64,000 nucleotides of DNA from Octopus sinensis (taxonomy: Eukaryota): NCBI RefSeq assembly GCF_006345805.1, contig NC_043018.1:29016001-29080000 (forward strand). Direction: 5' to 3'. The notes under the pieces were generated by a model. The model made no database searches. It saw only the letters and a list, made by a program, of their open reading frames with translations, and was not told the origin of the DNA. How positions within the stretch are numbered: position 1 is the stretch's first letter; each line of letters starts with the position of its first letter. Below, piece by piece: positions 19,781 to 55,735 of this stretch. Made by a program: the position numbers and the translations under genes.

Positions 19781-20590
19781 AGAAATATTAAAATTACTAA
19801 GTCTCTCTAAAAGAGAACACGGCAGCGTTCCTGGAAATTAATAGTTATCGCCATACTAATATGGCATTCTTATAAAAATAAGAATAAAGCTGTCCGCTTA
19901 TTAGCTCCATGAGGCCATCGCCTTAAGTTAGCTATTTGATACACAAACTGTATCCATATAACCTTCGAACAAGGGAGGCCAGTCGCTCCACACTACTTGA
20001 TCGACAGCTACAGACGCGTTTCGGGGTATTTCGGGCAATACCCCGAAACGCGTCTGTAGCTGTCGATCAAGTAGTGTGGAGCGACTGACCTCCTTGTTCG
20101 AAGGTTATATGGATACAGTTTGTGTATCAAATAGCTAATTAAGGCGATGGCCTCATGGAGCTAATAAGCGGACAGCTTTATTCTTATTTTTATAAGAATG
20201 CCATATAGTATGGCGATAACTATTAATTTCCAGGAACGCTGCCGTGTTCTCTTTTAGAGAGACTTAGTAATTTTAATATTTCTATTATTGAAAACAAGTG
20301 GATGTATTCCACCGAAACTAGGTAAATAAAACCTTCGAACAGAGATAGTCGGAAGCGACACCTACTGGTCTGACTACGCTACATTGACAAGGGGCAATAC
20401 CCCGAAACGCGTCTGTAGCTGTCGATCAAGTAGTGTGGAGCGACTGACCTCCCTTGTTCGAAGGTTATATGGATACAGTTTGTGTATCAAATAGCTAACT
20501 TAAGGCGATGGCCTCATGGAGCTAATAAGCGGACAGCTTTATTCTTATTTTTATAAGAATACCAAATTAGTATGGCGATAACTATTAATA
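19775..20590 (+). mobile_element. Non-coding Penelope/retrozyme-like element: ~255-bp inverted arm plus ~1.5 tandem copies of a 359-nt unit
   Basis: 19775-20030 is the reverse complement of 20037-20289; the sequence from 20033 recurs at 20392; embedded in (TAA)n; contains a hammerhead. Confidence 0.8.
20378..20419 (+). ncRNA. Minimal type I hammerhead ribozyme, U3-A8 variant
   Basis: gctaca TTGACAA gggg-caata-cccc GAA ACGCGT C tgtagc: 6-bp stem I, 4-bp stem II, palindromic stem III, GUC triplet. Confidence 0.8.
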
Positions 20591-20699
20591 ATAATAATAA
20601 TAATAATAATAATAATAATAATAATAATAATAATAATAATAATATAATAATAATAATGATAATAAAAAGAAGAAGAAGAAGAAGAAGAAGAAGAAGAGA

Positions 20700-20835
20700 A
20701 TCGACAATCCATCTCCTTGTGGCAAGAGGATTATAATCTCCAGAATTTTTGGGAGAATATAGGACGGTACTTTTCTGAACGTCTACAGTATTAATCTCGG
20801 TTCTGATGTCTTTTAGTCTGTTAGGTAGAACTATT
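20700..20835 (-). mobile_element. 3' remnant of a restriction-like-endonuclease LINE (R4/Dong-like)
   Basis: Minus strand reads LPNRLKDIRTEINTVDVQKSTVLYS then ILPKILEI in a shifted frame, resembling the LQK..L..ARILRKVLE terminus; runs into trinucleotide repeats. Confidence 0.45.
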
Positions 20836-21171
20836 TTGCTGGATATAATGGAAAGTGTCAGCTGCCCACAGCTAGCAGGCAAAGGTGACACTTGTTTACT
20901 GATCATAACTTGCAAAAAAGCTTGCAAAACCCTTGAAGGTACTAGCAATGGTGATTTATTGTAAGTGTTCAATTTTTATGTTTGTGCCAATCTTTTTGAT
21001 CCACGTTGTTACTTGAGTGCCGATACTTCCAAGCACGCCAATTGCTATTTCAATCATATCCACTCTCTTCATTGCCCATGGCTCGCGTATTTCCCACTTC
21101 GATTCATCATACCTGTTCACTTTCTCTTCATTCTTTTCAATCCTTTTGTCACAAGGACATGCTGTGTCAAT

Positions 21172-21720
21172 TTTTCTTCTTCTTCTTCTTCTTCCTTTTC
21201 TTTTTCTTCTTCTTCTCCTCCTTCTTCTTCTTCTTCTTCTTCTTCTTCTTCTTCTTCTTCTCCTGCATCTACTTCTTCATCATCTTCATCTTCATCTTCA
21301 TCTTCATCTTCATCTTCTTCTTCTTCTTCTTCTTCTTCTTCTTCTTCTTCTTCTTCTTCTTCTTCTCCTCCTTCTCCTCCTCCTCCCCTCCCCTCCCCCT
21401 TCTCCTTCTTCTTTTCTTCTTCTTCTTCTTCTTCTTCTTCTTCTCATTATTATCATTATTATTATTATTATTATTATTATTATTATTATTATTATTATTA
21501 TTTTTATTATTATTTTTATTATTATTATTATTATTATTATTATTACTACTACTATTACTATTATTACTACTATTATTATTATTATTATTATTTTTATTAT
21601 TATTATTATTATTATTATTATTATTATTACTACTATTATTATTATTATTACTATTATTATTATTACTATTATTATTATTATTATCATTACTATTATTATT
21701 ATTATTATTATTATTATTAC
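21172..21720. repeat. Compound (TTC)/(TTA) microsatellite
   Basis: Direct reading. Confidence 0.95.
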
Positions 21721-21957
21721 TTCACTTCTCAGAGCTCTTAATTACATTTCCTCCGGTTAATTCAGTAAGAGCGGACAATAAAATCTATTGTCAGAGGTTT
21801 TACAGAATCTCTTGCTACAATGCTTAACACACCCACGTTACCAATCTTAAGATCTTCACCGCCCCCAACAAAAGAACTGGAACATCATATAAATGTTATA
21901 TTTCCTACTCTTCTAATTGTGTATAATAATTCTCTCGGTATTTGTTTTTTCGTTTTT

Positions 21958-22965
21958 ATTCTTTTACCTTCCATTTTTATCTTTTGTTTGTTTTAGTTAT
22001 TGACAGTGGCCAGCTGGAGCACTACCTTGAAGGTTTATTAGTCGAACGAATCAATCGACCCCAGTGCTTATATTTTAAGCATAGTACATATTCTGTCGAT
22101 ACTCTGTACCGCACGGATACGTTACGAAGCATAAACGTACGAACACCGATCGCCAGGCAGTGGTGTGAATGAAACAGAAACGCAGAGCCAGCCGCACCAT
22201 ATATATATATATATATATATTATATATATATTATATATATAATTATATATATATATATATAATATATATATATATATGCATGTATATATATATCTATGTA
22301 TATATGTATATATATGTATGTATATATATGTATGTATATTCATATATGTATATATATGTATATATACGTATGCATATATATACATATATGTATATGTATA
22401 TATATGTATATATGTATGTATATACATACATATGTGTAACTATGTACATACATACATATGTATGTACATATGTTTCCTTTTTATTTTTGTTTTTATGTTT
22501 TCGTTTCTGAGTGAGTTCAAAAATTTTTTGATATCCTGTACACATTTATGCATGTATATATACATATATATGTACGTATGTACATATATGTATGTGTATA
22601 TGCATATATTTATATATCATATATGTTATTATATACATACATATATATGTATGTATATACATATATACACACACACATATATATACATATATATATGATA
22701 TTATAATATACATACACACATACACACATATCTATATATATATGTCTGCGTGTGTGTGTATATATATATGTATGTATATATGTGTGTATGTATGTATATA
22801 CATGTACAATGGCTTCTTTTGGTTTCCGCCCGCCTAAAAAAGCTGCGACGTCTTCGTCGACTCGGCACTATATAAGACACTTGCCCAAGTTGCTTCGCAG
22901 TAGAACCGAACCCGGAATTGTGTAAATAGAAAGCAAGCTTCGTAACACACAGCCACGCCTATGCC
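21958..22965 (-). mobile_element. Old SINE family A copy split by an expanded internal (AT)/(GT) tract
   Basis: 3' half at about 21958-22195, 5' half at about 22805-22965. Confidence 0.65.
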
Positions 22966-53803: not shown

Positions 53804-53975
53804 GAGTACGTTAATTAAAACCCGACCTGACTTAATCCAGAAACTCTATAATCAAATGCCGTCTCGGTTACTAAAGTTATAACTCGGTTACTAAAGTTAT
53901 AACTTTAGTAACCGAGACGGCATTTGATTATAGAGTTTCTGGATTAAGTCAGGTCGGGTTTTAATTAACGTACTC
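53804..53975. repeat. Perfect palindrome with a 22-nt tandem duplication at the axis
   Basis: gagtacgttaattaaaacccg...(ctcggttactaaagttataa)x2 ctttagtaaccgag...ttaattaacgtactc. Confidence 0.9.
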
Positions 53976-54199
53976 AGAAAACGAAACTAAGCTATCATAA
54001 AAAAGCAAAACGTATCTAATCCAGAAAATCTATAATAAAAAACAGTCTCAATTATTATAACCTTCCATTTTCATTTGACATTGTCTATCGAGGACTATAC
54101 TGTGCAATGTTGCTTGATGAGTTTCAGACAGCAGGATCGGGATTTGTGTTTTTCGGAGTCGTTCGGTTGACATTTATGAGAGATTACTTGGCAAAAACT

Positions 54200-54385
54200 G
54201 TAAAGTGGCGATGTGGCACTCGTCCGATTTTTCGTTCTGAGTTCAAATCCCGTCAAGTTCGACTTTACATTTCATTGTTTCGAGATCGATAAAATAAGCA
54301 CCAGTCGAACTCTGAGATCGATGTAATCGAATTAGCCCCCCTCCCCCACGAAATTATTTCCTTTGTACACAAATTTGAAACCCAT
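54200..54385 (+). mobile_element. SINE family B, degenerate
   Basis: cgttctgagttcaaatccc...gatcgataaaataagcaccag...caaatttgaaacc. Confidence 0.65.
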
Positions 54386-54679
54386 TTGGTGATAGCTGTC
54401 AACACTTTTTAACACTCATGACAGGCGGGAGCAAATTAACGGGGTAGAAATATAAAGCTTTCAGCATTTAAATATATCCGAAAGTTGTGTGTAATTAATG
54501 CAAGGATGGAACGAAGAATTAATGTAGATGTTGAATCTCTTAGGATATACACCCTGGTTTCGCACTCTTTTTCTGTCTTCATTTTCTCTTTCCTTCACTA
54601 TATATATATTATATATATAATATATATATATATAATATATATATATATATATATATATATATATATATATATATATATA

Positions 54680-54900
54680 TAGTTCGTTTAAATATTTGTT
54701 GTGCAAGATTTTCTATGTGAAGTCGTGTGTTGAAACATATATTGTTATATTTCGGAATGGTCATATTGCCATTTAGCCGAAATAAGATTAAGGTTAATGT
54801 AAAAAATAAATAACACTGAAGCAAAATAACACCAAATATATAGTGCATGTGTTTTTATTGGCTAAACTGGCAATATGACCATTCCGAAATATAACGATAT
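54680..54900. mobile_element. Small fold-back element with ~40-bp inverted arms in (AT)n
   Basis: gttatatttcggaatggtcatattgcca.tttagcc / ggctaaactggcaatatgaccattccgaaatataac; a single arm also lies at about 24712-24750. Confidence 0.6.
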
Positions 54901-55493
54901 ATATATATATATAATATATATATATATATATAGATGTATATATGTGTGTGTGTTTGTGTGTATAGATATACAGATAGATAGACAGGTATATATATATATA
55001 TATTATATATATATATAATATATATATATATACACACAGACATAGACATGCGTATATTTAGATACACAAATACAAGCACGAATATTTATATGTATATACA
55101 TATATAATAAATATATGACGGTAAAAATTATTAGAGATAATAATTTATACCAGTGGCCAGCATGCGTAAAAAATTGTCTGTAGACCATAAAATATTTATA
55201 TATATATATACATATGTGTGAATAAATTACACACTGAGAAGAGAACCACTGGATGGTTTCTTTGCATGCTGGAAAAAGATGTCAAATACTCAAACCCGTA
55301 TTTTTTGTATTTTTTTGTATTTTTTAGGGGACTTGACAAATTTTTTTCCAACATGGTATGATTTAAGTATATCATTGTTGAATTGCTACATGGTGGTTCT
55401 CCTCTAATTTATATACATACATACATACATACATACATACATACATACATACATACATACATACATACATACATATATATATATATATATATA

Positions 55494-55735
55494 ATGGTTG
55501 TATACTGTCAATCTAACAAGAACGTGACAGTAGGGGGTACACCACCGTTATATAGCCCTAGGAGGCATCGAACGCCTCCTGACAGCTTCGACACATTTTA
55601 TCCTGTGTCCTTATATACACATACGAAGGGGAGACAAACACCCCCAACCGCCGGAACTGCATCTAGGGACACCGTGTTTCAGGATCATTGTCCTTCATCG
55701 GCCTAGAGTAGCAGACACCGGTCAGCTGGCGATAT
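55494..55735 (-). mobile_element. Hammerhead-bearing non-coding repeat interrupted by the ORF1-only element (probably continues at 57462-57510)
   Basis: Homologous to 33787-34075; split at the 11-bp TSD. Confidence 0.7.
55662..55707 (-). ncRNA. Minimal type I hammerhead ribozyme (U4C)
   Basis: tctagg CCGATGA agga-caatga-tcct GAA ACACGGTGT C cctaga. Confidence 0.78.

Follow-up and report, generated by a model that had tools for sequence, protein, structure and literature searches.

Minimal hammerhead ribozymes of metazoan Penelope-like elements (PLEs) were described in 2014 as type I motifs of low activity with a palindromic helix III, for which dimers are needed (PMC4209133). Type I hammerheads are also carried by the non-LTR (long terminal repeat) retrozymes of a mussel, non-coding elements with tandem units of ~350–390 nt that have been argued to stem from the pseudo-LTRs (pLTRs) of PLEs (PMC7229834; bioRxiv 10.64898/2026.07.22.740005). 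Here, we describe hammerhead folds in a 64,000-nt stretch of the Octopus sinensis genome (RefSeq assembly GCF_006345805.1, contig NC_043018.1, positions 29,016,001–29,080,000 of the forward strand; hereafter, the window). Very probably, these folds are type I hammerheads of high-copy non-coding families that a PLE reverse transcriptase (RT)-endonuclease likely copied and integrated at (TA)n, and for which slow cleavage, mainly as dimers, is predicted. The carriers are likely non-autonomous PLE derivatives and retrozymes.

A U3-A8 core, with ~1,300 matches in Schistosoma mansoni, was reported together with the minimal PLE hammerheads (PMC4209133). Natural U3-A8 covariation, U4C in a viroid, and a natural A6C of low activity are likewise on record (Perreault et al. 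2011, PMC3088659), and the engineered C3G/G8C double change restores part of the activity, including that of a PLE hammerhead (PMC11167929, PMC8495972). PLEs of the Hydra clade, among which one octopus member is listed, combine (TA)n targeting with RWK, DKT, and CxCX5C motifs (Craig et al. 2021, PMC8557442). PLE insertions are recognized by partial tandems, a 5′ copy in inverted orientation, a microsatellite bias, and a tail on one side (PMC8557442), the tail having been traced to two RT start sites (PMC11167929). One PLE hammerhead cleaved only with protein present (PMC11167929), and the need of cleavage for PLE hammerheads has been called unclear (PMC8557442).

The window contains the following folds, named in the text by their approximate window positions.

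20378–20419 (+): type I hammerhead with U3-A8, in which stem I has 6 bp, stem II 4 bp, and the palindromic stem III 6 nt; predicted to be cut after 20413 (+)
46688–46739 (+): minimal type I hammerhead with G3-C8, predicted to be cut after 46732; stem II of this copy has an additional C
55662–55707 (−): type I hammerhead with C3-G8, U4C, canonical-type stems, and a stem III of 4 bp + 1 nt
33947–33993 (−): type I hammerhead with C3-G8 and a canonical core, the stem III palindrome broken by one private change
26763–26825 (−): hammerhead with a long stem II; U3·G8 only in the window copy, C3-G8 in the family
36785–36830 (−): minimal hammerhead with C3-G8, an extra base after A9, and a 4-nt stem III
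39969–40006 (−): small, Hydra-type hammerhead with C3-G8 and U4C, the core being that of its family
40020–40057 (+): inverted partner of 39969 with C3-G8 and U4C, stem II broken by private changes
1899–1934 (+): minimal hammerhead fold with a family-wide A6U core (CUG-U-N-GA)
27940–28010 (−): 3′ half of a hammerhead at 27964, a 5′-truncated copy of a C3-G8 family
3445–3496 (+): hammerhead with C3-G8, sister of the 26764 family
25708–25749 (−): hammerhead with C3-G8 and stems similar to those of the G3-C8 family

An initial annotation of the window had located these folds correctly, all of its named coordinates being confirmed, and the last two entries were absent from it. The type I junction (G5, A9, G12-A13-A14, A15.1-U16.1, H17, and an open stem I) was found in the window folds, and U4 and A6 were both kept except in three families, namely 55662 (U4C), 39969/40020 (U4C), and 1900 (A6U). 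Judged by sequence, the loci resemble PLE and retrozyme hammerheads, whose structural features they show at the family level apart from U4 or A6 in those three. The folds had all been described as minimal, which does not apply to 20378, 33947, and 55662: with 6 bp in stem I, an internal loop beyond it, and 4 bp in stem II, motifs of this kind belong to the canonical metazoan type of PMC4209133. Stem III had been called mostly palindromic; this holds for 20378 but not for 55662 and 39969/40020, in which 4 bp and one central base form an imperfect palindrome. The locus at 27964 had rightly been read as half a hammerhead, and its family has a long stem II and a weak stem I.

Small folds of this kind might be expected by chance in AT-rich, repeat-rich DNA. 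A strict type I descriptor matched the window three times (20378+, 46688+, and 55662−), whereas 60 local dinucleotide shuffles of the window gave no match in which 3-8 was paired. A relaxed descriptor, which tolerated one extra base after A9 or before G12 and was fixed after the loci were known, gave eight matches in the window, all with a paired 3-8 (seven Watson–Crick and one U·G) and none unpaired, against a mean of 0.19 paired (maximum, 2) and 0.2 unpaired matches in 200 window shuffles. It gained 3445+ and 25708− and lost 33947, which was recovered by a separate scan. Because this descriptor was set after the window loci had been seen, it was retested on an independent 1-Mb sample of the genome (2.72 Gb, microsatellite-rich, 13,516 contigs), consisting of 100 evenly spaced 10-kb stretches, with a score threshold of at least 8. 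The sample yielded 32 matches, compared with 4.1 in shuffled sequence (20 shuffles). A position-4 pyrimidine was present in 28 sample matches, comprising C3-G8 (15), U3-A8 (6), C3·A8 (2), G3-C8 (1), and four other 3-8 types with one match each; each type occurred 0.1–0.3 times in the shuffled sample. Although the post hoc choice of the relaxed descriptor and the ~4 matches per Mb found even in shuffles speak for chance folds, the enrichment in both the window and the independent sample, the covariation count described below, and the fact that pairs lost in single window copies were usually restored in family members make this explanation vanishingly improbable.

The sample contained ~22 intact motifs per Mb, which extrapolates to roughly 60,000 genome-wide (a rough figure, counting paired copies among the matches) and supports the large population of motifs that had been proposed. 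CUGANGA-only searches, which had been expected to miss part of it, would overlook about half: this core was missing from 12 of the 22 intact motifs (5 U4C, 6 U3-A8, and 1 G3-C8), and published counts from canonical descriptors are therefore likely underestimates. The density in the window (125 per Mb), which had been taken as typical, is about five times that of the sample. A setting in or beside microsatellites had also been suggested. The motifs themselves show this tendency to a modest degree, 7 of 10 lying no more than 200 nt from a microsatellite as compared with 36% of random positions, but the 3′ ends of the elements do abut (TA)n.

All eight loci searched genome-wide proved to be members of repeat families, with 632–1564 first-look candidates each (20378, 1564; 46688, 1529; 36786, 1310; 27964, 1232; 55662, 1194; 33947, 839; 40020, 707; 26764, 632). 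These candidate counts are not copy numbers; 40 candidates were scored per locus, and the resulting family alignments include some overlap duplicates and favor query-like copies. Further copies of 1900, 3445, and 25708 were present in the 1-Mb sample. The claim that the catalytic 3-8 pair covaries was sustained between families, since U3-A8 occurred in 73/73 family matches of 20378 and G3-C8 in 29/30 of 46688. U4C, noted earlier at two C3-G8 loci, is family-wide in both, with C4 in 27/27 family matches of 55662 and 31/32 of 40020. By contrast, the U3/G8 variant reported at 26764 is a private mutation of one copy: C3 was found in 21/22 matches of this C3-G8 family, the window copy being the sole exception. 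Loss of the pairing in family consensuses had been named as an outcome that would speak against covariation; instead, position 3-8 formed a Watson–Crick pair in 7/7 families aligned and in the 27964 family, with the single 26764 copy failing. When representatives of seven related families were aligned, 97.8% of cells paired and 11 of 13 pairs changed on both sides, with 3-8 being CG in five representatives and UA in two. In 500 shuffles, neither the proportion of paired cells nor the numbers of two-sided changes were ever reached, and pairing with slid partners was ≤47%.

The families are not as unrelated as had been thought. The 3′ flanks are common to 33947 and 55662 (z 50; 74% over 160 nt) and to 26764 and 3445 (z 21), with 20378 as a more remote relative of the former two. 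A second U3-A8 family (locus L327) is the sister of the C3-G8 family L340/L371 (flank z 20). A path from C3-G8 to U3-A8 through CpG decay is possible but unsupported, because N7 in the U3-A8 families is C, A, or U. C3·A8 as a fixed intermediate was rejected, the L340 copy being private and 44/48 typed family cores being C3-G8. The 25708 family was considered as a C3-G8 sister of the 46688 family; its stems are similar, but the flank homology was not significant, and flank comparison found no C3-G8 sister of the G3-C8 family with alignable flanks. We also observed a very young 353-nt retrozyme family with C3-G8 (L340, L358–L387; 1534 candidates), copies of which are 100% identical, and five clusters of further U3-A8 hammerheads that do not belong to the 20378 family (L297, L304, L327, L340:2542, L077, and L246).

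The insertions that carry the folds, which the initial annotation had not recognized, were delimited as follows.

19775–20589: retrozyme insertion of ~1.5 units of a 361-nt tandem repeat, with the plus-strand part at 20033–20589, a 5′ inverted arm at 19775–20030, and the 3′ end at (TAA)n
26524–27134 (−): just over one unit (~562 nt) of a tandem-type element, flanked by (TA)n runs
33782–34063 (−): truncated retrozyme of a sister family of 55662
36700–37125 (−): short interspersed element (SINE)-like insertion with a tRNA-like head, (TAA)n, and a hammerhead tail
39862–40090: inverted pair of one short element family (39969/40020), ending at (TA)n
46674–46879 (+): monomeric SINE-like element of ~205 nt, starting 13–20 nt upstream of stem I
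55489–55735 (−): 5′-truncated copy of a retrozyme with a 364-nt unit, the 3′ end at (TA)n

Tandem units measured 361 nt in the 20378 family, 364 nt in 55662, 353 nt in L340/L371, and 557–562 nt in 3445 and 26764. Six 361-nt units stand in a row at locus L007 (20378 family), and a 557-nt tandem array of the 3445 family was found at locus L334. Non-coding tandem units with one type I hammerhead each, which define non-LTR retrozymes, were thus found for 20378, 55662, and 3445/26764, and no tandem units were seen for the 46688, 36786, or 39969 families. In the 46688 family, no unit-length array occurred in 55 loci, and L211 alone had a duplicated inverted pair. Copies are 5′-truncated, often with an adjoining inverted arm (e.g., 19775–20030 and 39862–40090), and end at one of two 3′ points 55–70 nt apart, usually against (TA)n. 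The marks of PLE mobilization were therefore present, namely 5′ truncation with an inverted copy, two 3′ end points, and microsatellite targeting. The tRNA-like head of the 36786 element has A/B-box-like motifs (37057–37125), and ARAGORN detected no tRNA in the heads of this family in 6/6 loci. In the window copy, a 126-nt piece (36861–36986) resembles a PLE 3′ untranslated region (UTR), possibly through a template switch. Separately, copies of the 46688 family in 3/55 loci (L033, L039, and L044) run 5′ into a branch-point-like motif, a pyrimidine tract, and a CAG that sits 13 nt upstream of stem I; a 5′ splice site was not found there.

With regard to the partner enzyme, the window retains one fragment of a PLE.

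34855–35184 (+): linker (CxCX5C) and GIY-YIG-type endonuclease of a Hydra-clade PLE, preserved as a broken remnant

CxCX5C and CxxC were the only motifs in this remnant, and a 78-aa piece of it had no match in Pfam. A search for its genome relatives returned 4810 candidates and 175 matches. At locus L186 (3550–5393, −), we found a 528-aa RT-endonuclease frame with RWK and DKT in the upstream frame, a linker with CxCX5C, a nuclease with CxxC and CxH, and (TA)n flanks. Its GIY-YIG domain was recognized by Pfam at E 0.008, below the curated cut-off. On these motifs, L186 is a Hydra-clade PLE by the features given in PMC8557442, and a U4C hammerhead lies ~200 nt behind the stop of its RT-endonuclease frame. 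Elements like L186 were seen in L187, L188, L192, L193, L195, and L196, none as a fully intact copy. Naiad was rejected as the partner because the endonuclease is C-terminal.

In the mechanism that we propose, transcripts of the tandem families (~360 nt; 20378, 33947, and 55662) would fold into double hammerheads, and the self-complementary stem III would permit slow cleavage, predicted mainly for the dimer. Multimeric retrozyme RNA would be cut to monomers and then circularized, and a PLE RT, with nicks in (TA)n as primers, would reverse-transcribe round the circles. If the active fold is under selection, this would account for the replacement of C3-G8 by other Watson–Crick pairs only (U3-A8 and G3-C8). 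The monomeric SINE-like families (46688, 1900, 36786, and 39969) would likely be copied from uncut RNA. We computed the energies of the double-hammerhead (dimer) folds for 11 cases and compared them with the minimum free energy (MFE). The active dimer was the MFE structure in three cases (20378, the 33947 family, and the L371 family), lay within 3 kcal/mol of it in two, 5–10 kcal/mol above it in four, 36786 falling in this range, and 17–22 kcal/mol above it in two, whose long stem II was under-modelled.

The A6U fold at 1900, which the initial annotation had regarded as degenerate, turned out to be a faithful copy of a family with a fixed A6U. The element carrying it ends at (TA)n near 2024. 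Among 39 copies found, 17 were in the 1-Mb sample, which corresponds to ~46,000 copies genome-wide. U was present at position 6 in 31/33 typed copies, and N7 varied across different subfamilies (U 13, C 6, A 6, and G 6). A sister family has the normal A6. At ~17 copies per Mb, the A6U family is among the most abundant hammerhead-like families sampled.

Several results weigh against the reading of PLE-borne hammerheads that cleave, some concerning the assignment and others the cleavage itself. In Rfam, 20378, 33947, and 46688 had no hammerhead match at E ≤10, and for the whole window no hammerhead was among the matches listed (150 of 212), which were microsatellite-driven miRNA models; variation at 3-8 is not the cause, because 33947 with its canonical core was missed too. 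The link of 20378 to the 33947/55662 group is weak (z 4.8–7.5, mononucleotide shuffles). No pLTR sequence among 42 endonuclease-bearing loci matched the window families except 36861–36986, and we therefore infer the partner enzyme from the insertion pattern. Given that most families have no direct pLTR match, that fragments of L1/Tx1-like or RTE elements occur in the window, and that the 36786 family has a tRNA-like head, the families could instead be SINEs moved by another long interspersed element (LINE), with hammerheads unrelated to PLEs. The 5′ inversions, paired 3′ ends, (TA)n targeting, Hydra-type stem III, and PLE 3′ UTR-like piece in the 36786 copy argue against such an origin, which we consider highly unlikely.

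The remaining points bear on cleavage. Of 62 5′ ends mapped in the 20378 family (some counted twice because loci overlap), which ranged from −95 to +268, none fell at the cleavage site, and ~40 further copies continue into the next unit. A circular template and an uncut multimeric one would equally account for copies that exceed one unit and for 5′ ends placed without regard to the cleavage site. In the 46688 family, no copy began at the cleavage site in 30 loci retrieved by a query located entirely 3′ of it, and the active dimer lies 5.2–5.3 kcal/mol above the MFE; the corresponding value for the 1900 family is 9.7 kcal/mol. The A6U family reached ~46,000 copies, and an intact core was therefore unneeded for its spread. 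In vitro, cleavage of the PAc hammerhead was dispensable for PLE insertion (PMC11167929). Because the dimer is disfavored, no 46688 copy begins at the cut, and A6U was amplified, cleavage of the monomeric families is doubtful, and 46688, 1900, 36786, and 39969 probably cleave weakly or not at all.

The same observations would fit a hammerhead that no longer cleaves in several families and either serves the PLE protein as a folded handle or is carried as a passenger, with G3-C8, U4C, and A6U being attenuated or dead cores. The absence of unit-length arrays and of copies starting at the cleavage site in the 46688 family, its disfavored active dimer, and the dispensability of PAc cleavage all point this way, as do the fixation of A6U across subfamilies with all four N7 bases and the lowering of activity by A6C and U4C (PMC3088659). 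However, unless the active conformation is under selection, it is difficult to account for a double transversion to G3-C8 by which the tertiary pair is restored, the mismatched 3-8 cores were private (26764, and the L340 copy set against its family), and both the U4C viroid and engineered C3G/G8C ribozymes stay partly active, according to the sources cited above. We regard loss of cleavage in this sense as possible but unlikely; it could apply to the monomeric families alone, with the retrozymes cleaving as predicted. A narrower proposal, to which we give still less credence, is that in monomeric families copied from uncut RNA the fold was selected as a structural or protein-activated part of the PLE ribonucleoprotein and not as a free self-cleaver, with G3-C8 (>1,000 copies) and A6U (~46,000) fixed as natural cores not found in print, and with U4C in several families and in a PLE coding for an RT-endonuclease. 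If this were true, the families would form a series of natural mutants with which to ask what purpose PLE hammerheads serve. We continue to prefer hammerheads that were copied by PLE enzymes and are predicted to cleave slowly as dimers. Position 3-8 is a tertiary contact of the active core, and its repeated Watson–Crick replacement therefore points to selection on that conformation.

The rest of the window consists of transposon debris and simple repeats, with no clear host gene among the long open reading frames (ORFs). An L1/Tx1-like LINE with a zinc-knuckle ORF, an AP endonuclease, and an RT, recognized by eye, lies at 5647–10241 (+) and 11770–14854 (−) in broken frames, with inverted 3′ fragments. 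Mariner-type transposase fragments and an RTE-like RT fragment, also recognized by eye, occur at 30143–31035 (−), 47818–48294 (+), and 57618–58088 (−). A long hairpin (59614–59740) inside a 184-nt tandem repeat is probably an inverted repeat-family junction.

PLE and retrozyme hammerheads, dimer cleavage, natural U3-A8, and natural U4C have already been published in the sources above. We did not find in print a family-wide natural G3-C8 or an abundant A6U; U4C is widespread here and also occurs in a PLE coding for an RT-endonuclease. In the literature covered, only engineered uses of G3-C8 were found and natural A6U was not found, including in the passages of PMC3088659 considered; the part of PMC6155905 considered held nothing further on core variants. 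For cephalopod hammerheads or retrozymes, the same coverage yielded PMC8557442 besides one LTR-element paper. A family-wide G3-C8 would be the natural counterpart of the classic engineered 3-8 rescue. Both the abundance of the A6U family and the lack of copies that begin at the cut are relevant to the question of whether PLE hammerheads have to cleave, for which the families are ready substrates.

Compared with the metazoan hammerheads of PMC4209133, the octopus families share the tiny palindromic helix III, the extra base after A9, opposite-strand pairs, U3-A8, and the presence of many heterogeneous families in one genome, whereas G3-C8, U4C, and A6U families are not mentioned in the parts of that article covered. 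The 3′-splice-site-like start of some 46688-family copies is reminiscent of Penelope, in which an intron extends up to helix I (PMC4209133). Among published core variants (PMC3088659, PMC11167929, PMC8495972, and PMC3884650, as far as covered), G3-C8 is engineered only and A6U is unmentioned, whereas both are family-wide here. Unlike the mussel retrozymes, one octopus retrozyme family has U3-A8 and its sister has U4C; the 46688, 1900, 36786, and 39969 families also differ in being seen as monomers or inverted pairs. The Hydra-clade hammerheads in File S2 of PMC8557442 are all CUGANGA, in contrast to the U4C hammerhead of L186. On the other hand, the stem III of 39969/40020 (4 bp + 1 nt) is nearly identical to that of the Hydra hammerheads in the same file, and the insertion pattern of the window families matches the PLE signature described in PMC8557442 and PMC11167929.

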